Virus record (IMG/VR): IMGVR_UViG_3300017971_002799
Coordinates: 1-64,000 of that record
Source: a virus
Taxonomy: Duplodnaviria; Heunggongvirae; Uroviricota; Caudoviricetes
Length of the DNA stretch: 64,000 nucleotides
Strand: one strand, 5' to 3'
Positions 4,539 to 44,661 of the stretch are shown in pieces. Below the pieces are notes generated by a model. It saw only the letters and a list, made by a program, of their open reading frames with translations, searched no databases and had not been told where the DNA came from. The translations under genes and the position numbers were made by a program. The stretch's first letter is position 1. Each line of letters starts with the position of its first letter.

Positions 4539-4883
4539 CTAACTCGTTTTATTTTTTATAACTCCTTGGCTCGCGAGATAGTCAATAAGCTCCTCTTCCT
4601 TTAGGAGTCTACACCACTCAGGAAAAGGTCTACTGTACGACGAGTAAATTACTCGACGGTCAAGAGAGCACGACGTATGGATCTTGGTCTCTTCTTCTGT
4701 GTAGTGCGGACAAGTCTTACAATCCGTTATCATTATATAACGACGCCCTTTTATTTCGTTAGAGGGTTTGTCTATTTGTATAAACGGTTGTAGACTTTCA
4801 CAGGAGACGCAGAATTGTGCAGGGTTTGCCTCTTCGTGCTCTGAATGTATCCAGCCGCAGGTTGTACATCTAAAATAAGCCAT
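4539..4883 (-). CDS. hypothetical zinc-ribbon protein
   Basis: CTTCG...CVSC...CKTC motifs. Confidence 0.55.
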   Translation of the reverse strand: MAYFRCTTCGWIHSEHEEANPAQFCVSCESLQPFIQIDKPSNEIKGRRYIMITDCKTCPHYTEEETKIHTSCSLDRRVIYSSYSRPFPEWCRLLKEEELIDYLASQGVIKNKTS

Positions 4884-22853: not shown

Positions 22854-23806
22854 CAAGAGACTCTAGGTGGATTTGACAGAGTAAAAGATCTTAACCGGGT
22901 TTGATCTTGGGGTTTTGCAAGTGGGCGAACACCTTCCTTTCCGCACCGGGAAGGTTAGTAACTCACTTACTTCAAACTTTTCTTGGTTCCTATCAGTTAT
23001 TATGAAGTGCCTCCCGTACTTTTTATGTTCCGGACTGATGGGAGCCAACAAGAGCTTGAGGATCGAGACAACCTCCGAAGTTCTTGAACTCAACCTCGAA
23101 AGGGGTTGTATCACTGGGAAGAGGCTGGACCCGAGGACAGACTGGCATCCTGAGGGAATTGAACAACCGCCTTATTGTAAAGCTCTCAGGCGAATGCGGA
23201 CGGAGTGGAGTGGTGCGGGGTGAAATAGCCCGCGAGTAGGGTCCAGTCCTCACATCAACACGGCATATGGCGCTAGAGAGTAGGCGTCACCGGTAACCAA
23301 CCCGGAGATCTTGGACAACGTATCTGAGATCTAGGTTTTCGACGGAGAACCGAATTCGTGCGGGGTTTGATTCCCAGCGGCCGTGACCAGAAAACTTATG
23401 ATCGGAGGATAAAAAGGAAGGACTAGTACCCCTTCTGATTATCCCTCGGTTTTGTGTAGATACTAGTTAAGACACGAAGTCGAAATTTGCTTCCTTCCGA
23501 CGGAAGCAGTTGAGAAAGTAGGGAATAAACCCTCTCCGATCACCAATGTACATACTAGACTTGTTAACTTGGGAGTTCATAAAACTATATCTCCTAATGC
23601 AAGAACTTTTTATTACACTTGCAATACCTTATATCAAAGATCCTAAACTCGGTAACAAAATTCAACACCACTTAATCAGTTGCCAGGTGTTGAGAACGAT
23701 GAGTTTAAATGAATTACCTAGTATCGCGAGAGATAAGATACTCTGGCAAGGTAGACTAATGTTAGTACTGTTACTAGGTACAATCGTTTTCAAAGAGTTA
23801 TACTAA

Positions 23807-23881
23807 TGCAGGGTAGAGCAGAGGCAGCTCGCTTGGCTCATAACCAAGAGGTCGACGGTTCGAGTCCGTCCCCTGCTACCA
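23807..23881 (+). tRNA. tRNA-Met (anticodon CAT) with initiator-like features
   Basis: Hand-folded cloverleaf: acceptor (T)GCAGGG/CCCTGC(T), U8, D-stem GAGC/GCTC with A11:U24, anticodon stem CTTGG/CCAAG, loop CTCATAA, T-arm GACGG-TTCGAGT-CCGTC, discriminator A, encoded CCA. There is a 1:72 mismatch. Confidence 0.7.
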
Positions 23882-23882
23882 A

Positions 23883-24000
23883 GGAGTAGTGCCCGAGAGG
23901 TTAGGGTTACAGTGTCACGAGAGGGTAAACATGTGACTACTGGGGGCACCCAGTTAAAGCTGTATTAAACACGTAGGTTCGAATCCTACCTACTCCCCCA
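23883..24000 (+). tRNA. 118-nt tRNA-like gene with ~39-nt insertion in the anticodon arm (putative intron; anticodon possibly CAC)
   Basis: Perfect 7-bp acceptor GGAGTAG/CTACTCC, U8, D-loop GAGAGGTTA, canonical T-arm GTAGG-TTCGAAT-CCTAC, discriminator C, encoded CCA. The anticodon helix ACAGT/GCTGT encloses a GTCAC/GTGAC helix and a CTGGG-GGCA-CCCAG hairpin. Confidence 0.45.
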
Positions 24001-24008
24001 AGAAAACA

Positions 24009-24110
24009 GGAGTGGAGGCTTCTAATCGCACCACAGGGTTAGAACTGGTCACTGGGACTGTGGAATAATCATTCGGGAGAATGAACGAGTCAACCCAGTG
24101 AGCCTCCTAC
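24009..24110 (+). ncRNA. structured RNA element candidate (7-bp closing helix GGAGGCT/AGCCTCC with interleaved helices)
   Basis: GGAGGCT (24014-24020) pairs with AGCCTCC (24101-24107). Internal CCACAG/CTGTGG and CACTGGG/CCCAGTG helices interleave, so the fold would be pseudoknot-like. The element sits immediately downstream of the tRNA pair. Confidence 0.25.
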
Positions 24111-24266
24111 AAATGGGTGAAAGCCTTAAAGGGAGAAAATGAGACCGATTGACGCTATAGAGAAACATTGCACTTTCTGCGCAACAAGAGGATTGAGATT
24201 CTCCTGTGACCTTCAAAATAGTATTCAATACTATGATCACCCTTGTTATATGAGACATGAACACGT

Positions 24267-24719
24267 TTGTCTCAAAGCGGAAGAGGTGAGAAAAGAAATG
24301 CATCTGAGAGTAGTTGGCAGAAGTGCTCCTGTGAGGGGAAAAAGAGAGTGATAATTAATATGCCTTATATCGGTAGGGTTCTTTCTGTAAACTACTATAA
24401 AGTTTACGATCGTAGAGGAGTTCCTACAAATACTACCAAATCAGTTACACAAGACTGGATGGATACCCTAACACGATTAATTAGGGAACATCCCGAATTC
24501 GAAAGTGTTCATCATAAAGATGTTACAATAAAGTTAACAGGACATTTCAAGGATCAGCGTTATCCCGACTTACATAATCTACACAAGATAATCGGAGACG
24601 CTGTAGAGCCTGCAATTGAAGTAAATGACAAGTATATCAAGTTTGAAGACGTTGGTTCCTTTATCGGTGCAAGAGTTCCCATACTGAAAATAGAAATCGT
24701 TCCTGATAACAAAATCTAA
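24267..24719 (+). CDS. RusA-like Holliday junction resolvase (probable true start at ATG 24360)
   Basis: MPYIGRVLSVNYYKV matches RusA LPxPPSVNxYW; PDLHNLHKIIGDAVE matches RusA DxDNxxKxxxDAL. Confidence 0.5.
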   Translation: MSQSGRGEKRNASESSWQKCSCEGKKRVIINMPYIGRVLSVNYYKVYDRRGVPTNTTKSVTQDWMDTLTRLIREHPEFESVHHKDVTIKLTGHFKDQRYPDLHNLHKIIGDAVEPAIEVNDKYIKFEDVGSFIGARVPILKIEIVPDNKI

Positions 24720-25056: not shown

Positions 25057-25749
25057 ATGACAGTAAAAGCTGTTATACTATTATCTGGCGGCCTAGACAG
25101 TTCAGTAGTCGCCTACATAGCGAGGCATGACATAGGAGAGTCAGGGGATTTATATGCTCTGACTCTTTCTTATGGTCAAAGACACGAAAGAGAAATAGAA
25201 AGTGCTATGGACATCGCGAGAGCTGTCGGGGCTTGTCAGCATATTATACTCAAAGGCTTACCAATAGATGTCCTAGTTAAAACCGCTTTAACAGGGGATT
25301 TCGAAGTTCCAACAGATGGAGTCAGTGCCGAGATACCTTCTACTTGGGTTCCACAAAGAAACAGTATCTTCCTAGGACTTGCTTTCGCTCTTGCGGAGAC
25401 TGTTGACGCTCGCGCTGTTTACATAGGTGTTAATTCTGTAGACTACTCTGGCTACCCAGATTGTCGACCAGAATTCATATCGTCAGCAGAAAAGACTTTT
25501 AACCTAGCGAGTAAAAGGTTTGTAGAGAAGCGCAGAGCAATCGAGTTAAGAACTCCGATAATTAGTAAGTCTAAAAGAGATATTGTTCGTTGGGGTATGG
25601 AGTTGAGGGTTCCATTCGATTTAACTTGGTCTTGTTATCAAGGTAACGAAAAGGCCTGCGGGGTCTGCGATAGCTGTCGGATAAGAGTAGCAGCTTTTAG
25701 GAGTCAGGGATTAACAGATCCTATTGAGTATGAAGAGGTTGTAAAATGA
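25057..25749 (+). CDS. queC: 7-cyano-7-deazaguanine synthase QueC
   Basis: PP-loop LLSGGLDSS; YGQRHEREIE; C-terminal zinc motif CYQGNEKACGVCDSCRIR; size ~230 aa. Confidence 0.85.
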   Translation: MTVKAVILLSGGLDSSVVAYIARHDIGESGDLYALTLSYGQRHEREIESAMDIARAVGACQHIILKGLPIDVLVKTALTGDFEVPTDGVSAEIPSTWVPQRNSIFLGLAFALAETVDARAVYIGVNSVDYSGYPDCRPEFISSAEKTFNLASKRFVEKRRAIELRTPIISKSKRDIVRWGMELRVPFDLTWSCYQGNEKACGVCDSCRIRVAAFRSQGLTDPIEYEEVVK

Positions 25750-26069
25750 TCGATGACCCAAATCTAGTCACGGAATCACCCAAGAAAACCTTAATTGGCA
25801 AAGGCTGGTTTGCTTTTATCTTCGTGGTAGTCGTCTTAGTAGCTATCACAATAGCAGTGGGGACCTTGCCGCGAGGAGACGATTCTCCACCAAATGTAGT
25901 TTCTGCTCCGTACGAAGTCAAATCGTCTTTTGGAACCTACTATGTTCAAGGTTACCAGATTGACGACGGCATTCTTGTAATACAATTCCCCACTTTAGGT
26001 ACTCCAACGGCTGAGGATATCTTGATTATTGGGGGAGACTTCGAAATTAGGCCCAGAGTATTAAAATAA
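25746..26069 (+). CDS. small membrane protein
   Basis: TM helix WFAFIFVVVVLVAITIAVG. Confidence 0.45.
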   Translation: MIDDPNLVTESPKKTLIGKGWFAFIFVVVVLVAITIAVGTLPRGDDSPPNVVSAPYEVKSSFGTYYVQGYQIDDGILVIQFPTLGTPTAEDILIIGGDFEIRPRVLK

Positions 26070-26083
26070 AAATTTTTAGGAGG

Positions 26084-26677
26084 TTGTCCGTGTTGGACGA
26101 GCAATTTAAACAAGCCAGTAGCGATTTGGTAAGCAGCCTTAGAGAGATGTATAAAGATTGGGATGGTGTAAGTCAGTTCAATGATACAGAGAATCGACTA
26201 ATCCGATTGTTTGACGAATTCTGTTGGCCTCCCGATAAGATTGAGACTGCTTTGGATAAACACTTCAAAGCAACCTTTCCACATCAGTTTGATGAGATGC
26301 TGGTGTCAGGCCCTTTTAAAGTCTTCACTTTATGCCCACACCACTTAGTACACTGCGAACTCCAGACGACCATCGCTTATGTACCTAGTGACAATAAGGT
26401 ATTAGGCTTGTCGAAATTTATCAGAATAGCAGAAACGATGGCTCGCAGACCTATACTCCAAGAACAGTTCTGCAACGAACTTGCTTGTGAGTTTGAAAAG
26501 AGACTTCACCCCAAAGGCGTTGCTGTTTATGTCGTAGGTAAGCATGGATGCATGACTTCTCGAGGCGTTAGACAACACTCAAGAGTCACAACAAGTGTCT
26601 TAAAGGGGACATTTGAAACGCAAGCAGTAACGCGTGCAGAGTTCTTTGCCATAGCTAGAAACGGGAAGGTAGAATGA
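26084..26677 (+). CDS. folE: GTP cyclohydrolase I (FolE)
   Basis: CPHHLVHC (FolE CEHHLxPF zinc site); VLGLSKFIRIAETMARRPILQEQF (FolE GLSKxxRxVExxxRRLQVQE). Confidence 0.8.
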   Translation: MSVLDEQFKQASSDLVSSLREMYKDWDGVSQFNDTENRLIRLFDEFCWPPDKIETALDKHFKATFPHQFDEMLVSGPFKVFTLCPHHLVHCELQTTIAYVPSDNKVLGLSKFIRIAETMARRPILQEQFCNELACEFEKRLHPKGVAVYVVGKHGCMTSRGVRQHSRVTTSVLKGTFETQAVTRAEFFAIARNGKVE

Positions 26678-27630
26678 TCAGCGTTGATGAAGAACAGCTT
26701 GAGGTTGTTGAACACAAAGGCAGTACAATATGTGTTGCAGGTCCAGGAAGCGGTAAGACTCGAACATTGCTCGCCAAAGCCGAACGCCTCTACGAAAAAA
26801 ATAGAGATCTGATCTGTTTAACGTTTACAAGAGCAGCTGCTGAAGAATTAATAGACAGAATGCCAGGAATAACAGCTTCCACAATACACTCTTACTGTTG
26901 TAGAAATGTTGGTTGGAATGGTAGTTACGATAGACTTCTATTCGACTTTCAGAATCGGAAATACAAAGACAAATACGAATACGTTTGTATTGACGAAGTC
27001 CAAGACTTAACAATCGAACAAATGGATGTAGTACTCTCTATAGCTGGTGAGAAGATTTTTGCTATTGGAGACCCTTATCAATCAATTTATGGTTTTAACG
27101 GTGCTTTAGGTTTAGAAGCTATCAAAATGCTGAAGCAGTGGGGTTGTGAAGAATTTACATTACATAACAACTACCGAAGTGAACCTAAAATTGTTGATTT
27201 CCTAAACAAGATCTACGCAAGGAAGTTGATAAGTAAGGGTTTTAAAACCAATGGAAAGACAGCAATACTTTCTCGCACGAACAAGTTAGTCAAAGAGGTC
27301 TCTACACTCTTAAGAGGTTTGGGGATTGCTCATACTGTGAGATTTGGTAATGCCAGTGAGGGAGAGTCAAAAGAAACAAACTATGGCAGTGGCAACTTAA
27401 TTGTACAAACGTGTCATCAATCGAAAGGTACAGAGTTTGATTATATTCTCCTCTACAAGTGGGAACAACATCGCTTCCTTACAGACGAAGAAAAAAATCT
27501 TTTCTACGTAAGCGTTTCCAGAGCAAGTCATGGCTTTGCTCGTATATACAATAGACATCAGTTAATGGAAGCTTTAAAAACAGTAGGTCATGGCGAAAAA
27601 ACACAGTCAGGAAACTCGCAAGCGTCTTAG
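26674..27630 (+). CDS. minimal UvrD/Rep-like SF1 helicase
   Basis: Walker A GPGSGKT, motif II DEVQD, motif III GDPYQSIYGFNGA, motif V/VI-like CHQSKGTEFDYILL; lacks the 2B insertion. Confidence 0.6.
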   Translation: MISVDEEQLEVVEHKGSTICVAGPGSGKTRTLLAKAERLYEKNRDLICLTFTRAAAEELIDRMPGITASTIHSYCCRNVGWNGSYDRLLFDFQNRKYKDKYEYVCIDEVQDLTIEQMDVVLSIAGEKIFAIGDPYQSIYGFNGALGLEAIKMLKQWGCEEFTLHNNYRSEPKIVDFLNKIYARKLISKGFKTNGKTAILSRTNKLVKEVSTLLRGLGIAHTVRFGNASEGESKETNYGSGNLIVQTCHQSKGTEFDYILLYKWEQHRFLTDEEKNLFYVSVSRASHGFARIYNRHQLMEALKTVGHGEKTQSGNSQAS

Positions 27631-28009
27631 TGAAGCTGCTAAACGCCATTACGATAAGCACCCAGAGACGCGTATGCAAATAAGCCACACGCTTCGAGGC
27701 AAGCGTAAAAAACCAAATAAACAAGAAACCAGAGTTCTAAACTTCCTCAATAGAAAGTATCCAAATTGTTGGTGTTGGAATGGTGGTTGGCTAACTTTCG
27801 AAGGGAAGATACCCGATTTTATTCACGAGCCAAGTAAACTGAAAATAATTGAGTTCTTCGGTAACTACTGGCATAAACTAGAGGAAGAGGAAGAGAAAAT
27901 AAAATTCTACGCCAAGTTTGGTTACAAAGCTTTTATTATTTGGGAAACGGAGCTTGAAAACGCTTCCGGGATGGTAGAAAGACTTGATAAATTCATGCAG
28001 GAGGAGTAA
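27590..28009 (+). CDS. homing-endonuclease-like protein (NUMOD3-like N-terminus + Vsr/DUF559-type nuclease core)
   Basis: HSQETRKRLSEAAKRHY is NUMOD3-like; IPDFIHEPSKLKIIEFFGNYWH matches the Vsr-type D...E.FDG.YWH motif. Confidence 0.4.
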   Translation: MAKKHSQETRKRLSEAAKRHYDKHPETRMQISHTLRGKRKKPNKQETRVLNFLNRKYPNCWCWNGGWLTFEGKIPDFIHEPSKLKIIEFFGNYWHKLEEEEEKIKFYAKFGYKAFIIWETELENASGMVERLDKFMQEE

Positions 28010-28741
28010 ATGTTACTATCATTGGAAATACCAACGGGGATGTTAAAATTGATAACACCGTTAACGGACTTCGAATTCGCCTTAACACACCTTGTACTAA
28101 GCGATCAGGAGTATCAAAAACATTACGCGGAATCCGCAAACTTCAAAATTCTCGACAACTCTGTTAATGAAACCGGTACTCCCACCACGATTGCGGAACT
28201 GGAAGAAGCTGCGAGGATTATTCTACCAGATGTGATTTGTCCACCAGACTATTTTCTAGATGCTGACAAAACTCTGGACGCTCTAGAGGACTCGCAAGAT
28301 GTTTTCGACTTTGAAAAAATTCTACCAATTCTCCAAGGAGACTCCCACGATGTCGCTACTGATTGCGCTTGGGAAATACATAAAATGGGGTTCAACAAAC
28401 TAGCAATCCCGTATAGTATAACAAAAGATAGAAAAGCTGACTCTAGAGATAGTATGGCGGAAGCTCGTTATAACATTATCTATACTATATCTGGGCTGTT
28501 CGAGTGGATACATCTTTTGGGCGTGACTACACTAGACGAGCTCGGGGCTTATAGTGAGTTTCGCAACGTTTCCACTCTTGATACAGGAGTACCGATTACA
28601 GCTGCTTTTAAAGACTATAGCTTAGCAAGTCAAGAGTTACACCCCAAGAGTCAAAAGATGGTTTGGGATGGAGAGATTACTCCTGCGATTTGCAATCTAG
28701 CGCTCTACAACATAGCGTACCTAAGAACAGCTATGGTATAA
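28010..28741 (+). CDS. TGT-family DNA transglycosylase DpdA-like protein (paralog 1)
   Basis: FKILDNS aligns with the TGT DSGG loop; ILPILQGDSHDVATDCAWEIHKMGFNKLAIPYS aligns with TGT GIVQGGxYxDLRxxSxxxLxxxGFDGYAIGG; lies next to the preQ0 synthesis genes. Confidence 0.4.
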   Translation: MLLSLEIPTGMLKLITPLTDFEFALTHLVLSDQEYQKHYAESANFKILDNSVNETGTPTTIAELEEAARIILPDVICPPDYFLDADKTLDALEDSQDVFDFEKILPILQGDSHDVATDCAWEIHKMGFNKLAIPYSITKDRKADSRDSMAEARYNIIYTISGLFEWIHLLGVTTLDELGAYSEFRNVSTLDTGVPITAAFKDYSLASQELHPKSQKMVWDGEITPAICNLALYNIAYLRTAMV

Positions 28742-29009
28742 GAAGGTGCGGTGCCCTCGGAAGACCTAGGAGGTGTAGACCCCCGTATCACGCGATTACA
28801 TTCGCAGGGTGGAAGTCCTTTTTAAGATAACGGGTAAGGCTGCTCCTAGAGTCTGAATGTCTTGCTTGCTAGCGAAGTGAGGATATAAACTGTATGATCT
28901 AGAGACCTCGTGGGGAGATAGAATTCTCCATGCAGTTGGGTGTGCTTGGGTGAAAAGTGCCGAGCCCAATAGTCGGCCTACCGCATCTTAATGAAGAAGT
29001 GGTTGAGGA

Positions 29010-29588
29010 GTGGGAGAAAATAAAATGATTGAAGTGGAAAAAATTTATGACGACATAAGGACTGAAGGATTGTACTGTGGTACTCCTATGACCTTTGTCA
29101 AACTAGGTTTGGGTACTGAATATCCAAGCTGTAGACAGCTTCTAGAGAATGTTGTTCTCTTGGGAAGAAGAAGATGGGTTTGTCTAATCGGTGAGAATAC
29201 TACAAGAGCTGGTATAGGAAGATTCTTCGAAGGTTTAAAGTCTTTTGGTTTCTCTAGCGAGGTAGTTATTACTGGTAATAGAAAAGAGCCCGGTTGGAGA
29301 AACAAAACCACAAGCATTATAGTAGAACTCGGAGAGGAACTTCGATACGACCTTACAACTCTTAGAATGGGAGATGCTATTCGAATCTCTTTACATACTG
29401 TTGATGATGTAAAGAATATTCAATCTGTATTGGATAGATTCGAAGAAGATCCTTTCTGGAAGTTTCTCTTCATCGACCCTGTTCTAGGAAAGGGTGAAAA
29501 AAGGAATCTCGTCTTGAAACGTATGATCATGGAAGCTGCCGAAGCTGCTAACAAGTGTGAGAAAGCGAGGGTTTTCTGGAATGTTTGA
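29010..29588 (+). CDS. QueE-like paralog lacking the radical-SAM CxxxCxxC triad
   Basis: Aligns with the QueE of this window (IYDDIRTEGLYCGTPMTFVKLGLG vs [24 protein letters not shown]; RRRWVCLIGEN vs [11 protein letters not shown]; GFSSEVVITGN vs [10 protein letters not shown]), but the CNLKCKYC site is replaced by LGTEYPSC. Confidence 0.45.
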   Translation: MGENKMIEVEKIYDDIRTEGLYCGTPMTFVKLGLGTEYPSCRQLLENVVLLGRRRWVCLIGENTTRAGIGRFFEGLKSFGFSSEVVITGNRKEPGWRNKTTSIIVELGEELRYDLTTLRMGDAIRISLHTVDDVKNIQSVLDRFEEDPFWKFLFIDPVLGKGEKRNLVLKRMIMEAAEAANKCEKARVFWNV

Positions 29589-29737
29589 TATATCTTTACA
29601 CACCAAAATAAAGTACTGGATTCAAGTTAAATTAGGACAGAAGCTTTGCTCAGGTCACAAAGTTTATCCTAACGGAGTAAGTTGTCCTGGTTGTCGAGAT
29701 TGTAAGTAGATAAACAACACCAAGTAAAAGGAGTAGG

Positions 29738-30706
29738 ATGTTAGCACAAGCCGTAATAGCAACTCCGGCTGAAGAAACGCATGCACCAGGATTTTCTGTA
29801 ACACAAGCTTCCCCGTGTTCTTATGCTACCTATTTAAACTACCATAAACTGGATCCTAAAGAAAGAGACGAGAGCGCTCATCTCACTTTCGAGGACGGAC
29901 ACGAGCAGGAAGCATCAATTGTAAAACAACTGGCACGTGCAGGCTTTGCTATGCGTTTCACAGGCGAGGATCAGTTGGAAGTCAAAGTCGGACGATCCGA
30001 AGTTCCAGGACATCCTGATGGTCTTGTAACACCTAAAGCTAAAGAGCTAATGCTTGAAATCAAAGCGATGCACGACTACAGATTTCAAACTGTTAGAGAA
30101 AAAGGTCTCACATTCGAGCCTCTTATTTACAATCAAGTTCAGATGTACATGCCTGGTTTAGAACAAACATTTGGTATTAAGGTTGAAGGTACTCTCCTCT
30201 ATTGTAAGAACAAGAACACTTGCGATCCCTTTGACATGTTTGTCGAAAGAGACGATTCATATTCCAAACCCATTATCGAGGCTATGGACGAAATCATTTT
30301 AGGTAATTGGGAACCTAAACCAGAAGTTTGTCAAATATGCACGACGTGTAGACACTCTAAGTTCTGTTGGGGCGCTCCAGTCCTTGATTTTACTGGCGGA
30401 CGTGTAATAACAGATCAACAACTTGTAGAGAAATGGATGCAAGGAAAGTCTTATAAGACTATGGGTGAAGAGCTCTACGAACAAGCGAGAGAGCAGATGA
30501 AGAAGCTTCTTGGAACAGACGATGTCATCTACTTTGAAGCTACCTTTGGGGAAAATGTAATTGTTGTTGAAGCTAAGTTAACACCTACTACCTATAGAAA
30601 CTTTAGTTCTGGTAAATACGCAAAGATACACGGAGTCAAATATTTGGAAGACTGTTACAACATTACAGATAGCTTTCAATTCAGAACACAAGAGATAATA
30701 AAGTGA
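29738..30706 (+). CDS. Cas4/RecB-family PD-(D/E)xK nuclease with Fe-S cysteine cluster
   Basis: N-terminal SPCSY cysteine; HPDGLV...LEIKAM (D..E.K); C-terminal CQICTTC...C cluster. Confidence 0.5.
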   Translation: MLAQAVIATPAEETHAPGFSVTQASPCSYATYLNYHKLDPKERDESAHLTFEDGHEQEASIVKQLARAGFAMRFTGEDQLEVKVGRSEVPGHPDGLVTPKAKELMLEIKAMHDYRFQTVREKGLTFEPLIYNQVQMYMPGLEQTFGIKVEGTLLYCKNKNTCDPFDMFVERDDSYSKPIIEAMDEIILGNWEPKPEVCQICTTCRHSKFCWGAPVLDFTGGRVITDQQLVEKWMQGKSYKTMGEELYEQAREQMKKLLGTDDVIYFEATFGENVIVVEAKLTPTTYRNFSSGKYAKIHGVKYLEDCYNITDSFQFRTQEIIK

Positions 30707-31077
30707 GTCAAGATAAAATGAGATACCGACCTTCAAGAGTAACTAAATCGATTCTCGATATGAGAATTCAGGCATATGAAAATAAGGGCTTTGCTAAAAC
30801 AAAGTGGATAGAGTTCTGTGAATTGATGTTAGCTAAAGGATTCATCCTACACATGTATGAAGCGAAGTCTACAGTCTCAAAGTATATTACAGTATCTCAT
30901 CCGAGTAAGCCTGGTAAGCGTTTCAGAGTAAGATTCTCTAATCACAAACCTATTAAGCATCGTGAACTAAATGGTGATTGTGATTTCTTTGTAGGTATTA
31001 CTAACTTAGCTACTACTAATACTGAACAAGCTATCGAAGCAACTCTAAAACATTTTTCGGTTGGGGTTAATGCTTAA
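30703..31077 (+). CDS. hypothetical protein
   Basis: ORF track; start overlaps the upstream stop. Confidence 0.5.
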   Translation: MSQDKMRYRPSRVTKSILDMRIQAYENKGFAKTKWIEFCELMLAKGFILHMYEAKSTVSKYITVSHPSKPGKRFRVRFSNHKPIKHRELNGDCDFFVGITNLATTNTEQAIEATLKHFSVGVNA

Positions 31078-31294
31078 CATAGCTGACATTAGATTCGGAG
31101 ATAAGGTACACTATAAACCACCTTACTACGGCGAGGATAGGTGGGAGAATGGTAAAGTAAAAGAAATACGTTCGGATGTAGACGATGCGATATGGGTAGT
31201 ATTCCACTGCGCAGGAGAATGGGAAAGATTTACAGAATACACTGCTGCAATGACTAAAATAAAAGACCTATACCCAGGGTGGAGACATGGCTAG
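31061..31294 (+). CDS. hypothetical protein
   Basis: ORF track. Confidence 0.45.
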   Translation: MGLMLNIADIRFGDKVHYKPPYYGEDRWENGKVKEIRSDVDDAIWVVFHCAGEWERFTEYTAAMTKIKDLYPGWRHG

Positions 31295-31505
31295 CTTTAC
31301 TTGTGATAATTCGAACTGTCTTCACCAGTGGGACGACGACATCATGGAAGGTAGAATCGAATGCCCCAAGTGTGGATTGTCACGTCCTAGAGTAATAAGA
31401 GCTACCTTTATTGAGCTAAATAGATCATGTACAACAATGGAATTCAATTTCGGACCTGGGCAGAGATATGGAACCCCTGTATATCACCTTAGCCAGAACA
31501 ACTAG
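31287..31505 (+). CDS. hypothetical zinc-ribbon protein
   Basis: CDNSNCLHQW...CPKCG motifs. Confidence 0.45.
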   Translation: MASFTCDNSNCLHQWDDDIMEGRIECPKCGLSRPRVIRATFIELNRSCTTMEFNFGPGQRYGTPVYHLSQNN

Positions 31506-31686
31506 CAAGCTATTACAACTCAAAGCTTACTATACACACGAGGGAAAGCTTTATTGCTTCGACTGTGGAGTAGGTCCTACTCTTATAGAAAACAGTTTAG
31601 AGTGGATAGAGCCGGGCACTTCAGCACATGAGGCTAGTATTATAATCGATGAAGTTGAAGACTGGCTAAAGAAGCGTAAAAAATGA
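31468..31686 (+). CDS. hypothetical protein
   Basis: ORF track; CFDCG motif. Confidence 0.4.
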   Translation: MEPLYITLARTTSKLLQLKAYYTHEGKLYCFDCGVGPTLIENSLEWIEPGTSAHEASIIIDEVEDWLKKRKK

Positions 31687-31721
31687 ATTACAAGGGGAAG
31701 TATTATTAAAAGGAGGTTAAA

Positions 31722-31850
31722 ATGAATTTATGGAACTTTGGTAACAAGGGGCCGCGCTACAATCGAGGGAAGAAGTTTAAATACAACTGGGGCTTCTTCC
31801 TAATGGCAGCTGCTATCATAGGTGCCATCATTCTATTCGTAACGAAGTGA
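31722..31850 (+). CDS. small membrane protein (42 aa)
   Basis: Not in the ORF track; SD aaaggaggttaaaATG; sequence MNLWNFGNKGPRYNRGKKFKYNWGFFLMAAAIIGAIILFVTK. Confidence 0.4.
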   Translation: MNLWNFGNKGPRYNRGKKFKYNWGFFLMAAAIIGAIILFVTK

Positions 31851-31857
31851 GGAAACA

Positions 31858-32253
31858 ATGCTATATATTTGTAAGAGATTCAAATTCGATGCCGCACATC
31901 GACTACCGCATTATAACGGGCCCTGTAAAAATCTTCATGGACATACCTACTTCCTAGATGTGAAGGTAAGCGGTCCGAAACAAGTAGAAGGACCTTGCAA
32001 AGGTATGATAATGGACTTCTCCATCTTGAAGACTGTAATACAAGAGAACGTCATCAGTCTGTATGATCATAACGATCTTAATAACTTCTTTAGTAACCCT
32101 ACTGCCGAGTTAATGGTTGAACAAATCTGGTATGACATCGTGGGTCAACTCGAGTTCAAAGGGGTTGTTCTAGAGGAATTAAGACTATGGGAAACTCCTG
32201 ATAGCTATGCAGAGATGAAAAGAGATCTTCCAGGAGTTGTAGGACCTTTATAA
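31858..32253 (+). CDS. queD: 6-carboxy-5,6,7,8-tetrahydropterin synthase QueD
   Basis: FDAAHRLPHYNGPCKNLHGHTY carries the QueD/PTPS zinc motif Cx5HGH; size 131 aa. Confidence 0.8.
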   Translation: MLYICKRFKFDAAHRLPHYNGPCKNLHGHTYFLDVKVSGPKQVEGPCKGMIMDFSILKTVIQENVISLYDHNDLNNFFSNPTAELMVEQIWYDIVGQLEFKGVVLEELRLWETPDSYAEMKRDLPGVVGPL

Positions 32254-32576
32254 TGGAATTCATTCACGCTAATTGCGGCGGGGACATTAGGGATAGAGTG
32301 TGTCAAGGCTGTGGTAAAAAGTGGGGCCTTGCAGCATATATGTCTGCAACGGATATTAGACCAAAGCCTGTCAGTCGGGAGGAGAGATTGGCTAAGTTAG
32401 CTGAGAAGCCACCGAAACCTGTTACCACTTATGCTTCTTGGGCTGACAATATCCCTTTTGTTCCCGTCATAGCAAAGTTATACCCCAACTGGCCTAGGAA
32501 GTGGAGGATTTTATCCTTTGTAATCTTCTATGGGATAATCATAACAGGAATTATATATTGGATAAAAACATGTTAG
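32253..32576 (+). CDS. zinc-ribbon protein with C-terminal TM helix
   Basis: CGGD...CQGCG motif; C-terminal ILSFVIFYGIIITGIIYWI. Confidence 0.45.
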   Translation: MEFIHANCGGDIRDRVCQGCGKKWGLAAYMSATDIRPKPVSREERLAKLAEKPPKPVTTYASWADNIPFVPVIAKLYPNWPRKWRILSFVIFYGIIITGIIYWIKTC

Positions 32577-32872
32577 GAGGAAAAATGAAAAAGGGACAGT
32601 TAATCGCAAAGCTTTTCATATTCACTGCAGGTATGGTATGGATGTTACTCTTTTTGTATATCTGTATCGTTTGCTTTGACTTCTTCAGAGAAGTTATGTT
32701 TGCCTACGGTGAAATAGACTTGGATAACTGGTTTATGACTGTGCTAGAGACATGGTATTTGCTTACCTGTATCGCTAGCGGCATCTGGCTTGCTCGCAGA
32801 ATGTTTCTAGTCGTTGGAGAATGGCAAAGGGAGAAGGTAAATGGTAATGGAAACCAAAAATCCAATTCTTAA
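32501..32872 (+). CDS. small membrane protein (likely true start MKKGQL at 32586)
   Basis: Two TM helices; SD ttaggaggaaaaATG precedes the ATG at 32586. Confidence 0.45.
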   Translation: MEDFILCNLLWDNHNRNYILDKNMLGGKMKKGQLIAKLFIFTAGMVWMLLFLYICIVCFDFFREVMFAYGEIDLDNWFMTVLETWYLLTCIASGIWLARRMFLVVGEWQREKVNGNGNQKSNS

Positions 32873-33554
32873 AGTAAACGAAGTTTTTTACTCCATTCAG
32901 GGAGAAGGTCTCACTGCAGGCGAGCCTACAATCTTTGTCAGACTTCAAGGGTGTAACTTAAAATGCAAGTACTGCGATACCACTTACGCACAAAACGGCG
33001 CTAGGGGTCTTCTTATAGGTACAGACGAGATCGTTAACTTGGTAAAGTCCCGATCAGAAAATAGTGTAATCGGAAAACGCTGGGTTTGTATTACCGGCGG
33101 CGAACCTCTCAAACAAATGATAGCGTTAGGGAGTCTAGTTCCTAAATTAAAGAAAGAAGGCTTCCTTATTGAGATAGAAACAAACGGGACTTATCTAAAA
33201 CCCTCCTGGTTTAACACTATCGACTCCTGGGTAGCTGATATAAAGTGTCCCTCTTCTAACTACTCCCCAACTGAAGGCATGATAACACTTTGGTTAAACA
33301 GTAGAGAACAAGATCAAGTAAAATTCGTTGTGGATAGTCATGAAGATCTACGCTTCGTAAGAAGACTACTCACAGAAGGATTTAACAACCGAAAGTACTT
33401 CAAGCCCAAGATACTGGTTAGTCCAGCTGCTAACGAGGATGCAGAGTTTAATCGAGACTGGATGGAAGAGGTCGTCGAGTTCTGTAAAGAATTGAACATT
33501 CGATTTTCTTTACAGATACATAAACTCATTTGGAAAAATAGAATAGGAGTTTAA
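32841..33554 (+). CDS. queE: 7-carboxy-7-deazaguanine synthase QueE (radical SAM)
   Basis: [32 protein letters not shown] (CxxxCxxC); GGEP motif; size 237 aa. Confidence 0.85.
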
Positions 33555-39864: not shown

Positions 39865-40040
39865 GTAAAGGCTACACAGAACCAATACCTATAATAGTCG
39901 CAATAATTGTAGGAACTCTTATCGCTTCAACAATAAATCTAGCCTCACAAGGAACCTACCTTGCGATCGTTCCCGCAATCACTGCAACCATAGCTTTAGG
40001 AATGTATGTATATCACTTAAGGAGAAAGCTGCGTGATTGA
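39861..40040 (+). CDS. small membrane protein (59 aa)
   Basis: Not in the ORF track; MSKGYTEPIPIIVAIIVGTLIAS...AIVPAITATIALGMYVYHLRRKLR; overlaps the polymerase start. Confidence 0.35.
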   Translation: MSKGYTEPIPIIVAIIVGTLIASTINLASQGTYLAIVPAITATIALGMYVYHLRRKLRD

Positions 40041-42414
40041 CCTAAGACTTTGCAATTGTGAAGAGTGTCCTCTATTCGGCTCCGGTATGGTTGTTACCAG
40101 ACGACCTTTTATATCTCCATACAATGTGATATACAAAGCAGTTACACGCAACAACGTTTTTCTGCAGCACTTTCGGATAGCTGAAGTCGAAGAGATCGAC
40201 CCTGTAGAAGTTCTTCTTATTGGAATGGCCCCCGCTTATGAAGAACTTCGCCAAGGAGATTTCTTTGTAGGCCAATCGGGTTTGCTCCTCAATGCTGTTA
40301 TGGGACAGTTAGACTACGATAGCTACGCTGTCTCTAACGTTTTGCTTTGTAGAATACCTGAAGAAGCTACACAATCTGAAATAAACAAAGCCGCTGATTG
40401 TTGCTTTCCAAGGCTGGAAGCTCAAATAAAGGAGTACCAACCAAAGTTATTAGTTGCTTTGGGAAACCTGCCTTTACACACTCTAACAGGTTTAAACATA
40501 GGTATAATGACGGCCGAAGGAAGGGTTCTCCCCAGTGACTATGGAGACGTTCTCGCAGTACAACACCCTGCAGCTGTTTTAAGATTTCCAGACAACTACC
40601 CAGACTTCCTAGAAGCTTTAAAAGGCGGTCTCAGATGGAAGTATGGAACTTACAAACAAATCACAGACGAACCTAATACTGTAGTTGTCGATGAAAACAA
40701 TATGGCCGATGTTTGTCAAAGAATCGAAAACGCCGGACTGGCAGCTATAGATCTCGAAACAACTCGTACAGGACTTAACCCTTATGGCCGAGAGCCTGAT
40801 GGTATTCGTTGTATGGCTATCACAATCGAACCAACGACAACATATATAGTACCAGGAGAAAGCTCTCCATACTGGCCTGAGCACCCTAACTTCATAAATC
40901 ATCCTGCTTTGATGGAAGTTATTCCTAAAGTTAAAGGTGTTTACCACAACGGACAATTTGATTGTGCTTTCATGTGGCAGACTGGCTATCGAAACAAAAT
41001 GTATTACGATACGATGATAGCACATCAAATAATGGATGAGAGGCCGAGATCCCATGGTTTGAAGGTATTAGCAAGAAAGAGATTGGGAGCGCCTGACTGG
41101 GAACATGATATAAAAAGGTATTTGCCTACTGGGAAAAGTAGTTATGACCTAATCCCCGACGACGTGCTCTATAGATATGCCTCTTTCGATACGATAGCCA
41201 CATATTTACTCTATCAACAATTCGAATCGGAAACTCGAGGGACGTTTTTCGACAAGTTCCTTATGAGAGCCGCTAACATGTTTGTAGATCTTAGGCACAC
41301 GGGAATTCGAATAGATCCTTGGGTTCTCATGCAAGCTGATGAGCTACTGGAGCAAGATCTGGACCAGAAAATAAAAGAGCTTTACGAAATCATCGGCCAT
41401 TATATAAACCCTCTGTCGTGGGCACAAGTTGCTGAACTACTGTACGATGAATTAGAACTACCACAAATAGCTGGACGTTCAACATCGGTTGACATACTTA
41501 AGAGATTACCTTATCATCCCGCTATAGAAAAGATTATAGAAATTAGACAGGCATCCAAGTTACGTTCTACTTACGTTTTATCTCTAATAGGGTTTATGGA
41601 TAACGATTATAGAGTACATCCAACAATCAAACTAGCAAGCACTGTAACAGGGAGAGCTTCGTCTGAAGATCCCTCTGTCATGACAATTGTGAGAAACAAT
41701 AACATCAAAAAGATGTATCTGCCCGAAGACGGTTCTCTCTTTATGGAAGCTGATGCAAAGCAGATGGAAGTAAGATGGTTTGCTATTTACAATCAAGACG
41801 AGGTGTTAAGAAAACTCTTAAACGAGGGCGACCCTCATGACATGATTAGAAAGCACATCTTAAAACTCACAGGGAAAGATTACCCAAGAGTGAGAGTAAA
41901 AGGTGCTGTTTTTGGTAAGATGTATGGCCGAGGAATTGATTCCTTCATGGCTGAATTTGGTGTACCTGCAGATGAAGCACAAGAGATCATTAATGGTATA
42001 ACAGAATTACTACCTACACTAAAACAGTACAACGATAGAATCGAGCACGATATAAAAACACTCGGTTACTTAACCAGCTACTTCGGAAGAATAAGAAGAT
42101 TCGGATTGTTAACGAAACGATCTTTTTATGAAGCACTCAAACAGGGAGTCAACTTTCCAATTCAATCAGCTGCCTCAGATACTAACTTATGGACGATGGT
42201 TCATCTCTATGAGAATGCTGATAAGTTTGGTATAGTGCCGCACTTCCCAGTTCATGACTCTGTTATCATGAGTATACAAGACAAGGATATGGTTCCGCTT
42301 GTGAAGAAGGAAATGGAGACCTTTAGTCAGGAAATTGTTAACAACGAAATGGAATTCGACATTGAAGTTAAAATAGGCCCTAACTGGGGCGAAACAAAGT
42401 TGTTAGAGGTATAA
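40033..42414 (+). CDS. Family A DNA polymerase with 3'-5' exonuclease and N-terminal UDG-family-4-like domain (catalytic Glu replaced)
   Basis: N-terminal LLIGMAPAYEELRQGDFFVGQSGLLLN (UDG4 GEAPGxxExxxGxPFVGxAGxLL, with E->M) and QHPAAVLR (UDG motif B). Exo I AIDLETT, Exo II YHNGQFDCAF, Exo III YASFDTIATY. Pol motif A EADAKQMEVRW, motif B RVKGAVFGKMYG, motif C VHDSV. Confidence 0.85.
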   Translation: MIDLRLCNCEECPLFGSGMVVTRRPFISPYNVIYKAVTRNNVFLQHFRIAEVEEIDPVEVLLIGMAPAYEELRQGDFFVGQSGLLLNAVMGQLDYDSYAVSNVLLCRIPEEATQSEINKAADCCFPRLEAQIKEYQPKLLVALGNLPLHTLTGLNIGIMTAEGRVLPSDYGDVLAVQHPAAVLRFPDNYPDFLEALKGGLRWKYGTYKQITDEPNTVVVDENNMADVCQRIENAGLAAIDLETTRTGLNPYGREPDGIRCMAITIEPTTTYIVPGESSPYWPEHPNFINHPALMEVIPKVKGVYHNGQFDCAFMWQTGYRNKMYYDTMIAHQIMDERPRSHGLKVLARKRLGAPDWEHDIKRYLPTGKSSYDLIPDDVLYRYASFDTIATYLLYQQFESETRGTFFDKFLMRAANMFVDLRHTGIRIDPWVLMQADELLEQDLDQKIKELYEIIGHYINPLSWAQVAELLYDELELPQIAGRSTSVDILKRLPYHPAIEKIIEIRQASKLRSTYVLSLIGFMDNDYRVHPTIKLASTVTGRASSEDPSVMTIVRNNNIKKMYLPEDGSLFMEADAKQMEVRWFAIYNQDEVLRKLLNEGDPHDMIRKHILKLTGKDYPRVRVKGAVFGKMYGRGIDSFMAEFGVPADEAQEIINGITELLPTLKQYNDRIEHDIKTLGYLTSYFGRIRRFGLLTKRSFYEALKQGVNFPIQSAASDTNLWTMVHLYENADKFGIVPHFPVHDSVIMSIQDKDMVPLVKKEMETFSQEIVNNEMEFDIEVKIGPNWGETKLLEV

Positions 42415-44061: not shown

Positions 44062-44661
44062 TTGCAAATAATGGACATCATTCCTTATGGGAAAAAGTAT
44101 CCAGACGTTACTAAGCTACTATATGACAAAGGCTATCTAAGGAGATATCCAAAACAACACAAAAGAGATGATCTACAGTACGACGATGGCATAGACATTG
44201 TCTACGATCTGAAAAACCTACCACCTGCAAAGTTTACGGAAGCATCTGACTTGTTACTACTAGCTGCCTATACAGAAGCACAAAGATATAAAGACGCTAC
44301 GTACAAATTCGCAAAGTTCATGGTGCACCTCAACAGAACAGCGCAAGGGAAAAAGCAGGTAAAGAAAGAAAGAGGTTATATAGCAAGTAGACATCGCGAT
44401 CCTGAAATCATGGTATACGGAGAACAAGGTCTTGGATACGAACTACCGGAAGAAGAGAAAAAGCCTTTCTTGATCAACAAAGTACAAGAGATACTAGGAA
44501 TTCCCGATAGCCCTAGCCCTGGTCCTTATGTCAAAAAACAACAACCATATAAAGTAATCAGACTAACAATTGGAATCAGAGCTGGCAAGATGTGGGAAGG
44601 TGTTCCAGGTCTTCTTATTCCTGGTGTGACTAATGTTAGCGAAGAAGCTACAGAAGAATGA
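44062..44661 (+). CDS. hypothetical protein; candidate terminal (priming) protein for the adjacent PolB
   Basis: The stop overlaps the PolB start (gaagaATGAaagg) and the protein is Lys/Tyr/Ser-rich. There is no sequence-level proof; the call rests on synteny with protein-primed replicons. Confidence 0.3.
   Translation: MQIMDIIPYGKKYPDVTKLLYDKGYLRRYPKQHKRDDLQYDDGIDIVYDLKNLPPAKFTEASDLLLLAAYTEAQRYKDATYKFAKFMVHLNRTAQGKKQVKKERGYIASRHRDPEIMVYGEQGLGYELPEEEKKPFLINKVQEILGIPDSPSPGPYVKKQQPYKVIRLTIGIRAGKMWEGVPGLLIPGVTNVSEEATEE

Follow-up and report, generated by a model that had tools for sequence, protein, structure and literature searches.

Does a phage tRNA gene whose anticodon arm is interrupted by some 40 nucleotides (nt) carry an intron, to be removed so that the tRNA can take part in decoding, or does it specify a tRNA-shaped RNA of another kind? 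The question is raised by a 118-nt gene at 23883-24000 (+) of IMG/VR virus record IMGVR_UViG_3300017971_002799, of which positions 1 to 64,000, the whole stretch of DNA analysed here, are referred to as the window. The window is part of a metagenomic phage contig of ~87.8 kb (JGI 3300028840 Ga0309773_1000552, present also in ENA and Logan), uses the standard genetic code, and is identical at this locus in six independently assembled contigs. The gene is a real tRNA frame, beyond what chance would produce. The reading favoured here, tentatively and by analogy with the species 1 RNA of phage T4, is that its product is left unspliced and serves as a non-decoding mimic of a tRNA. The original prediction, made from the sequence alone, had hesitated between an unusual intron and a non-canonical tRNA-like RNA, and the evidence still stands at that division. 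The parts of the gene are the following.

23883-24000 (+): tRNA-shaped gene of 118 nt, encoded CCA included (RF00005, ARAGORN with -i, fold)
23883-23889 with 23990-23996 (+): acceptor stem, GGAGTAG with CTACTCC, 7 of 7 pairs
23890 (+): U8 (sequence)
23892-23906 (+): D arm, CCCG-AGAGGTT-AGGG, with G18 and G19 present (Rfam alignment)
23908-23913 with 23959-23964 (+): anticodon stem, UACAGU/GCUGUA (folds)
23914-23953 (+): inserted module, the 40-nt 'intron' of ARAGORN, made up of two hairpins
23914-23919 with 23932-23937 (+): hairpin 1, GUCACG/UGUGAC, with the 12-nt loop AGAGGGUAAACA
23940-23953 (+; 23939-23954 in the minimum-energy fold): hairpin 2, CUGGG-GGCA-CCCAG, with a GGCA loop
23954-23958 (+): single-stranded joiner UUAAA, which on excision of the module would supply the anticodon UAA, or part of UUA, CUA or CAA
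23965-23972 (+): variable region UUAAACAC, 8 nt (ARAGORN drawing, sequence)
23973-23989 (+): T arm, GTAGG-TTCGAAT-CCTAC, 5 of 5 T-stem pairs and a canonical T loop
23997 (+): discriminator base C73 (sequence)
23998-24000 (+): encoded CCA (sequence)

Read from 23883 to 24000 (+), the gene runs GGAGTAG-TG-CCCGAGAGGTTAGGG-T-TACAG-T-[GTCACGAGAGGGTAAACATGTGAC-TA-CTGGGGGCACCCAG]-TTAAAG-CTGTA-TTAAACAC-GTAGG-TTCGAAT-CCTAC-CTACTCC-C-CCA. The frame that had been described (118 nt, 7-bp acceptor, U8, GG in the D loop, T arm and CCA) is in place at every position, and with its 7-bp acceptor, GG-bearing D arm and T arm with a TTCRA loop it has the hallmarks of a cloverleaf. Two of the checks proposed with the original prediction recover it. 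In a search of the 1.3 kb at 23100-24400, the Rfam tRNA model (RF00005) scores the gene at 34.2 bits against a gathering score of 29 (E 4.4e-05), with a 51-nt insertion placed in the anticodon arm, and ARAGORN, run at default stringency with introns allowed (-i), reports a tRNA-Leu(taa) whose first loop base is followed by a 40-nt intron. The gene appears to be unannotated because it is reported neither by ARAGORN at its default bacterial settings nor by a whole-window Rfam run at the gathering score. A scan for frames of 60-260 nt in which a perfect 7-bp acceptor stem comes directly after a T arm found three oversized ones in the window, compared to a mean of 0.27 in 30 shuffles.

The interruption is well structured. 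The anticodon helix ACAGT/GCTGT, which had been predicted to enclose ~47 nt, is present, but the enclosed stretch counts 45 nt; it forms a three-way junction whose two loops have 12 and 4 nt, and the primary sequence offers no 7-nt loop. The GTCAC/GTGAC helix and the CTGGG-GGCA-CCCAG hairpin, both noted earlier, are reproduced by the minimum-energy fold, and the insertion inside the anticodon arm, previously put at ~39 nt, has a length of 38 or 40 nt depending on the register and contains two perfect 6-bp helices. For the gene as a whole the minimum-energy fold is a cloverleaf that includes this three-way junction and, at -40.4 kcal/mol (z -2.16), makes up 29% of the ensemble; the expanded anticodon arm, folded alone, has a z of -2.63, which 3 of 200 shuffles equal. 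The tertiary contacts U8-A14, G15-C48 and G18G19 with the T loop are all possible as far as sequence goes, C48 being the 3' end of the variable region. The D arm is of the kind found in tRNAs with a long variable arm and has a closing pair of the G13.A22 type, while the 8 nt of the variable region are over the length for class I, and for class II are both too short and unpaired. The inserted module and its loop occur only once in the window, where no repeated or mobile hairpin element was found, and the 14-nt loop has no antisense target within the window.

Besides tRNA, no Rfam family matches at E<=10 in 23100-24400, ribozymes, riboswitches and transfer-messenger RNA (tmRNA) included. A group I intron, for which the insertion had been thought too short, was rejected, as the insertion has 38-40 nt and there is no Intron_gpI match at E<=10 in that region. 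The preQ1 riboswitch, considered because of the adjacent queuosine genes, Y RNA and the GOLLD and ROOL RNAs likewise have no match at E<=10. A tmRNA is not reported by ARAGORN (-m), and the tmRNA_permuted model reaches 15.6 bits against a gathering score of 47. Small self-cleaving ribozymes and GOLLD/ROOL are found neither at the gathering score in the window nor at E<=10 around this RNA cluster or the second one described below. It had also been remarked that no bulge-helix-bulge motif was obvious; an exhaustive scan of every position pair (3-nt bulge, 4-bp helix and 3-nt bulge, with at least one flanking helix) agrees, the motif being absent in strict or relaxed form from all nine junction pairs that would restore a loop. 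The ~50 open reading frames (ORFs) of the window (PHROGs/Pfam) yielded neither an RNA ligase nor a splicing endonuclease nor an RNA-repair domain, and the gene table for the contig at 64-69.7 kb has none of these either. The last ORF of the window is part of a gene of 1003 aa that runs past the window edge.

What a spliced product would look like can be enumerated. Nine single excisions would each leave a 5-bp stem capped by a 7-nt loop in which position 33 is U and position 37 a purine, and a cloverleaf folds for all nine products. With the stem UACAG/CUGUA the loop becomes UUUAAAG or GUUAAAG, and the anticodon UAA (Leu); with the stem ACAGU/GCUGU the anticodons are UUA, CUA, CAA or CAC, the last of these (Val) arising from the canonical 37/38 placement. 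The position of the insertion is ambiguous, from 32/33 to 38/39. The anticodon CAC of the original prediction is a valid outcome, but it is one of nine, and both ARAGORN and codon usage prefer Leu(UAA). In 24 long ORFs, UUA is the top Leu codon (26%) and GUG the rarest Val codon (11%), so that Leu(UAA) would fit codon usage better than Val(CAC), which is the less likely among the spliced readings.

Every excision product retains C73 and an unpaired variable region of 8-9 nt. In bacteria, tRNAs for Leu, Val and Tyr have A73, and those for Leu and Tyr have a long variable arm. The identity rules for these three amino acids would be contradicted because of the C73, the lack of a long variable arm and the variable loop of 8-9 nt, and, judged by its sequence, a spliced product would match no standard bacterial isoacceptor. 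The T arm and 3' acceptor strand share 24 identical nt with the tRNA-Tyr(GUA) of an unrelated viral contig (L001), and the weak blastn matches of the 3' end are mainly to phage genes for tRNA-Tyr, tRNA-Ser and tRNA-Lys. The frame looks as if derived from a class II tRNA, yet it fits no isoacceptor. Its Tyr-like D arm, T arm and acceptor prompted a reading as tRNA-Tyr, in which the CUGGG hairpin is a displaced variable arm and GUA lies in the 12-nt loop; this is less parsimonious, as two insertions are needed and there is no U33. A suppressor of stop codons, with anticodon UUA or CUA, was also rejected, given that the long ORFs gain no length when any single stop is read through and that the code is standard.

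The gene does not stand alone in the phage. Two multi-arm RNAs and a normal tRNA precede it, and two further oversized frames lie in a second cluster on the opposite strand.

23259-23390 (+): multi-arm RNA 1, closing stem CACGGC/GCCGUG followed by ACCA
23399-23545 (+): multi-arm RNA 2, closing stem GAUCGGAG/CUCCGAUC followed by ACCA
23807-23881 (+): normal tRNA(CAU), RF00005 62.8 bits, also found by ARAGORN; ends 1 nt before the 118-nt gene
12676-12872 (-; 12678-12871 in the frame scan): second oversized frame, tRNA-Pro(UGG)-like, 197 nt (RF00005 30.3 bits, ARAGORN with -i, frame scan)
12888-13062 (-; 12889-13060 in the frame scan): third oversized frame, ~173 nt, of which ~100 are extra (frame scan, fold)

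Together with a structured stretch that follows the gene (24012-24110), RNA 1, RNA 2, tRNA(CAU) and the 118-nt gene make up an RNA gene cluster of ~900 nt. The two multi-arm RNAs are folded from the apparently non-coding 23224-23545. JGI gene calling places no gene in 23224-24347, although an 86-codon ORF at 23546-23806 may interrupt the run of RNAs. RNA 1 has a T-like arm, GCGGGG-UUUGAUU-CCCAGC, adjoining its closing stem, and folds at -54.1 kcal/mol (z -4.25), a value equalled by none of 200 shuffles; for RNA 2 the z is -3.87, equalled by 2 of 200. Both have a hairpin beside the 3' strand, as in a tRNA minihelix, and with their 4-5 arms neither can be reduced to a tRNA by a single excision. 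Neither is matched by any Rfam family, and a blastn search of 50,697 phage records had no match for either. The tRNA(CAU) is 88% identical to tRNA-Met of Rhodobacter phage RcXuper and has A73. It is probably a reader of AUA, which, as the top Ile codon in the 24 long ORFs, makes up 46% of Ile codons, and it may be a tRNA-Ile2 of the lysidine type rather than a tRNA-Met. A U1.U72 mismatch is also present in this tRNA.

The Pro-like frame has an authentic AUUGGG loop part, after which come ~103 nt, placed at the canonical 37/38 site, and a further long arm, so that its extra nucleotides number about 103-122. Its acceptor and T arms are perfect, it has C73 and no encoded CCA, and its 3' end matches phage tRNA-Pro genes. 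The third frame lies directly upstream of it, with a perfect 7-bp acceptor (GGGGTCG/CGACCCC), the T arm GCGGG-TGCAAGT-CCCGT and again C73; ARAGORN reports it only at lowered stringency, as a weak Lys/ttt model. C73 is thus common to all three oversized frames (23997, 12677 and the 12888 region), compared to A73 in tRNA(CAU), and the oversized frames of other phage contigs have mainly A73 or G73. The hexamer GAGAGG occurs twice in the 118-nt gene (at 23895 in the D loop and at 23919 in the inserted-hairpin loop, +) and twice in the third frame (12994 and 13011, -), the background being 38 occurrences per 128 kb with both strands counted. As a lead only, it may be a shared D-loop-like or protein-binding motif.

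The phage itself is without close relatives among the sequences searched. An exact-protein look-up returned near-identical contigs only (1 mismatch in 6.7 kb), and protein searches gave identities of up to 64% for QueC and 65% for a flotillin, with three matches for a Rad52-like protein. A QueC-based search for the locus gave identities no higher than 55% and no tRNA with an intron, and at loci syntenic with the second cluster, in relatives with a 54-65% identical flotillin, there are no tRNA frames. Such frames are likewise absent from the loci of the closest proteins (64-65% identity). In the two closest of these flotillin relatives (L198 and L199; 65%) a TnpB (IS605 OrfB) gene replaces the tRNA frames. 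In IMG/VR, exact and degenerate DNA patterns had as their sole match an unrelated tRNA-Tyr with the same T arm and acceptor strand. A scan of metagenomes yielded archaeal-looking, intron-bearing tRNA-Ser genes that share the D loop, together with a GC-rich tRNA-like family, neither of them orthologous. Of 185,579 species genomes, a single one has the identical 17-nt D arm, within a tRNA-Ser-like gene of Nitrososphaeria. This tRNA-Ser(GGA)-like gene (L197 2102-2185; with L184 and L190) has 105 nt; between its D arm and anticodon stem a hairpin is inserted, probably a non-canonical archaeal intron.

Oversized tRNA frames recur as a class in phage tRNA clusters. A degenerate D-loop/T-loop pattern with a gap of 60-90 nt found 94 stretches in IMG/VR, 28 of which have a paired acceptor stem. 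One of the contigs, L161 (IMGVR_UViG_3300044701_004957), encodes at 4614-4710 (-) a tRNA-Leu(UAA) that is textbook class II, having A73 as well as a variable arm. On the 3' edge of its anticodon loop sits a 36-nt AU-rich hairpin, which makes this a cleaner case of a short non-group-I insertion in a phage tRNA gene. Three other frames from phage clusters, in L157 (3432-3529), L099 (277-374) and L164, have no 7-nt anticodon loop: there is a long hairpin with a CCCA tip in L157 and a 5-nt loop in L099 and L164, and the variable arms of all three have 31-49 nt. By their sequences these are probably tRNA-like RNAs that do not decode. All four frames fall below the Rfam threshold in a normal run, and ordinary tRNAs adjoin them. 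The GC-rich tRNA-like family, of ~105 nt, is found in IMG/VR (L100, L104, L111, L114, L115, L123, L128, L146, L151, L152, L165 and L167) and in metagenomes (L183, L185, L186 and L191). Its members consist of an acceptor stem, a CCCGAGAGG D arm, GGGTGAC...GCAAAAGG, a T arm CTGGGTTCGAATCCCAG and often an ACCA end; the long arm has a tip of the form GGC-7 nt-GCC with a variable loop sequence, and the family scores under the Rfam gathering threshold.

The protein-coding genes provide some indication of the host. Those with the closest bearing on the RNA genes, or on the host, are listed here.

25057-25749 (+): QueC, 7-deazaguanine pathway
26084-26677 (+): GTP cyclohydrolase I, 7-deazaguanine pathway
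31858-32253 (+): QueD, 7-deazaguanine pathway
32841-33554 (+): QueE, 7-deazaguanine pathway
13071-14597 (-): flotillin (SPFH), nearest named relatives in Planctomycetota

Other recognisable genes encode a UvrD-like helicase, the Rad52-like annealing protein, RusA, a Cas4-like nuclease, ribonucleotide reductase and thymidylate synthase, and a BRCT domain of NAD-ligase is also among the window proteins. Two DNA polymerases are encoded 2 kb apart, at 40033-42414 (+) and 44658-46391 (+); one is of family A with an N-terminal uracil-DNA glycosylase (UDG) domain, the other is a protein-primed (organellar/viral) family B enzyme. Identity of the polymerase to that of any isolate phage does not exceed 28%. 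The preQ0-type 7-deazaguanine pathway is complete (25057-33554, +) and begins 1 kb 3' of the RNA cluster, which suggests that the phage DNA is modified; no transglycosylase (DpdA) was identified among the scanned ORFs. The nearest named relatives of the flotillin belong to the class Phycisphaerae of the Planctomycetota (45-47% identity), a kinship that is a possible clue to the host. From gene content and nearest homologues the host is likely to be a bacterium; the one match to the D arm, however, is in an archaeon.

How the gene might work as a mimic can be outlined as follows. The 1-nt spacing suggests that it would be transcribed together with tRNA(CAU), as a dimeric precursor. RNase P would free the 5' end at 23883 and the 3' end would be trimmed to CCA, as the intact minihelix of acceptor and T arm leads one to expect. 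The acceptor stem, T arm and D arm would then fold into the 'top half' of the L-shape, while in place of the anticodon loop there would be a rigid three-way junction, whose two perfect hairpins are those of the predicted fold. The RNA would stay unspliced, as one of a set of tRNA mimics within the phage; its tRNA half would serve processing, stability and recognition by a tRNA-binding partner, and the junction would block decoding. As a pure guess, the partner might be a host factor directed at tRNAs (an anticodon nuclease, for instance, or another tRNA-sensing defence) or a phage factor that reads C73. This mimic is favoured because C73 is present in all three frames and no excision product fits an isoacceptor, because the neighbouring RNAs cannot be reduced to tRNAs and neither a splicing signature nor a splicing enzyme was found in the sequences scanned, because the T4 RNAs and frames such as that of L157 are precedents, and because the frame is intact rather than decayed, with perfect helices in the insertion and a well-defined fold. 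It is also conceivable, though somewhat doubtful, that the three C73 frames and the two ACCA-ended multi-arm RNAs form one family of tRNA-scaffolded RNAs encoded by the phage, which would be either a new class of mimics with a dedicated partner, for example as decoys against tRNA-directed host defence, or substrates of protein-dependent tRNA splicing in a bacterial host, a process never yet demonstrated in bacteria.

Several observations weigh against an unspliced mimic. No orthologues of the gene were found in IMG/VR, in JGI metagenome contigs or in the 185,579 species genomes. The C73 of all three frames is a post hoc observation, with a chance probability of about 0.01, and the negative result for splicing enzymes covers many ORFs that cannot be annotated and extends to 69.7 kb of the ~87.8-kb contig. 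The insertion lies exactly within the anticodon loop, and joining the sequences on either side of it would give back a canonical stem-loop, U33 and A37 included. The anticodon UAA would read the commonest Leu codon and, with Pro(UGG) for CCA and tRNA(CAU), probably for AUA, would complete a typical phage set; moreover, the loop of the Pro-like frame is authentic up to G37, with its insertion right after, which is easier to understand if decoding matters. The insertion-free alleles of Lak megaphages suggest by analogy that phage tRNA insertions can be removed. Such features of loop, codons and alleles would be expected of an intron-containing tRNA gene, most likely for Leu(UAA) and alternatively for Val(CAC), from which proteins would remove 38-40 nt and rejoin the halves in a Lak-like manner; through the helix formed by the insertion and the 5' part of the loop, both cut sites would come to lie at the three-way junction. 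Precedent for this is provided by the insertions of 93 and 79 nt at 37/38 in Lak tRNA genes that have insertion-free alleles (PMC6784885). The tRNA-Leu(UAA) of L161, with its 36-nt hairpin at the 3' edge of the loop, points the same way. However, the junctions have no bulge-helix-bulge and the scanned ORFs no ligase or endonuclease, there are nine solutions for the splice sites, the product would contradict the identity rules for Leu, Val and Tyr, and U33 with a purine at 37 in one of eight registers is not improbable by chance. We know of no protein-dependent tRNA splicing in bacteria, and on present evidence a spliced tRNA is unlikely, if a serious contender.

It is improbable that the gene is simply dead, a tRNA gene disrupted by a 40-nt insertion or a local rearrangement and without function. 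Decay would account for the odd identity features (C73, a variable loop of 8 nt, and a class II-type D arm in a frame that has no variable arm), and the collections searched contain no relatives of the phage and no evidence of conservation, while the relatives with a 54-65% identical flotillin lack tRNA frames at the site syntenic with the second cluster. A decaying gene would hardly be expected, however, to have five perfect helices, an insertion of two perfect hairpins, and intact CCA and tertiary-pair positions, nor would such debris be expected in a compact genome where the three frames and two structured, ACCA-tailed RNAs fill about 1.3 kb; the locus is, in addition, identical in six independently assembled contigs. 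Somewhat less probable again is that the 118-nt unit is one domain of a composite non-coding RNA locus at 23224-24138, similar in concept to GOLLD and ROOL. This would suit the ~900 nt of strongly structured segments in a row and the lack of any JGI gene call in 23224-24347, but there is no GOLLD, ROOL or other Rfam match, the 86-codon ORF at 23546-23806 may break the run, and the separate closing stem and NCCA end of each unit argue for separate processing. Very improbable is an intron of archaeal type in an archaeal virus, cut by the splicing endonuclease of the host, even though it is normal for archaeal genomes to have several introns and for these to lie at non-canonical positions (PMC4090602), the sole genome with an identical D arm is that of a Nitrososphaeria archaeon, and the D loop recurs in metagenomes in intron-bearing tRNA-Ser genes of archaeal appearance. 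The junctions that would yield a tRNA have no bulge-helix-bulge, in either the strict or the relaxed form; the genes resemble those of bacterial phages (a family A polymerase-UDG fusion, RusA, the Rad52-like annealing protein and the NAD-ligase BRCT domain), the flotillin is nearest to Planctomycetota, and tRNA(CAU) is closest to phages of alphaproteobacteria.

Short insertions other than group I introns in phage tRNA genes have been reported once before, as 'enigmatic', in Lak phages (PMC6784885). The present locus is a compact test case, as it combines an unambiguous tRNA top half, a 40-nt module of two hairpins and, as an internal control, a normal tRNA alongside. Excision of the module would mean that a route of tRNA splicing other than self-splicing exists in bacteria or their phages. 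Without excision, phages would encode tRNA mimics in which the anticodon end has been exchanged for other structures, which would bear on how defences that target tRNAs are dealt with; and as all three frames are missed by standard bacterial settings, this outcome would also bear on counts of phage tRNA content.

The known system that is nearest to the favoured reading is found in T4, where the order is tRNA-Arg, 1 nt, rnaD (119 nt), 6 nt and rnaC (139 nt, with a canonical T arm by its terminal helix). Species 1 (rnaC) and species 2 (rnaD), which are small stable RNAs, thus lie 1-6 nt behind a tRNA in a phage cluster and have 119-139 nt; the 118-nt gene, 1 nt after tRNA(CAU) and with a T arm adjacent to its terminal helix, has the same placement and size. 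To our knowledge, neither T4 RNA is spliced, and their function has been an open question for decades. There is no sequence similarity between them and the 118-nt gene, for which blastn in 50,697 phage records finds only matches to tRNA T arms and acceptors, and the folds differ. In addition, rnaC is missed by the tRNA model (17.5 bits, for tRNA-Sec only), whereas the 118-nt RNA is a full frame with 34.2 bits and an encoded CCA.

The group I introns in bacterial tRNA-Leu(UAA) genes have the same nominal anticodon and likewise interrupt the anticodon loop. Group I introns are, however, ribozymes of about 200-300 nt, and the classical intron lies between positions 34 and 35, a register which in the enumeration leaves G33 here. 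We know of no splicing endonuclease in bacteria. The protein-spliced introns of archaea and eukaryotes are similar in size range, in their location in the anticodon loop and in the pairing of loop bases with the intron (PMC4090602), but differ in having the bulge-helix-bulge motif, which is absent here, and the host of this phage is likely to be bacterial.

The closest parallel to the insertion itself is in the Lak megaphages, whose tRNA genes carry 'enigmatic introns' (Devoto et al. 2019, PMC6784885). Their tRNA-Tyr and tRNA-Phe have insertions of 93 and 79 nt at 37/38 without an Rfam hit (PMC6784885 Table S6), and alleles with and without the insertion have exons that are otherwise essentially identical (PMC6784885). 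Both Lak and the phage described here have several tRNA genes per genome that are overlong for bacterial tRNA finders, with an insertion in the anticodon loop that belongs to no Rfam family, is far below group I size and has no known mechanism of removal. They differ in that the two Lak insertions compared have 79-93 nt, include a T-arm-like piece and lie at 37/38, while here there are 38-40 nt in two plain hairpins at an ambiguous position. The Lak exons resemble normal isoacceptors, in contrast to the C73 and odd variable loop of the present frame, of which only insertion-bearing copies were found. The phages also differ, Lak having genomes of ~540 kb, an alternative code and Prevotella hosts, and this phage ~88 kb and the standard code. 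The 118-nt gene belongs to a poorly understood group, the oversized phage tRNA genes, within which it is distinguished by the shortest insertion, an ambiguous insertion position, a C73 frame and its membership in a cluster of tRNA-shaped RNAs.

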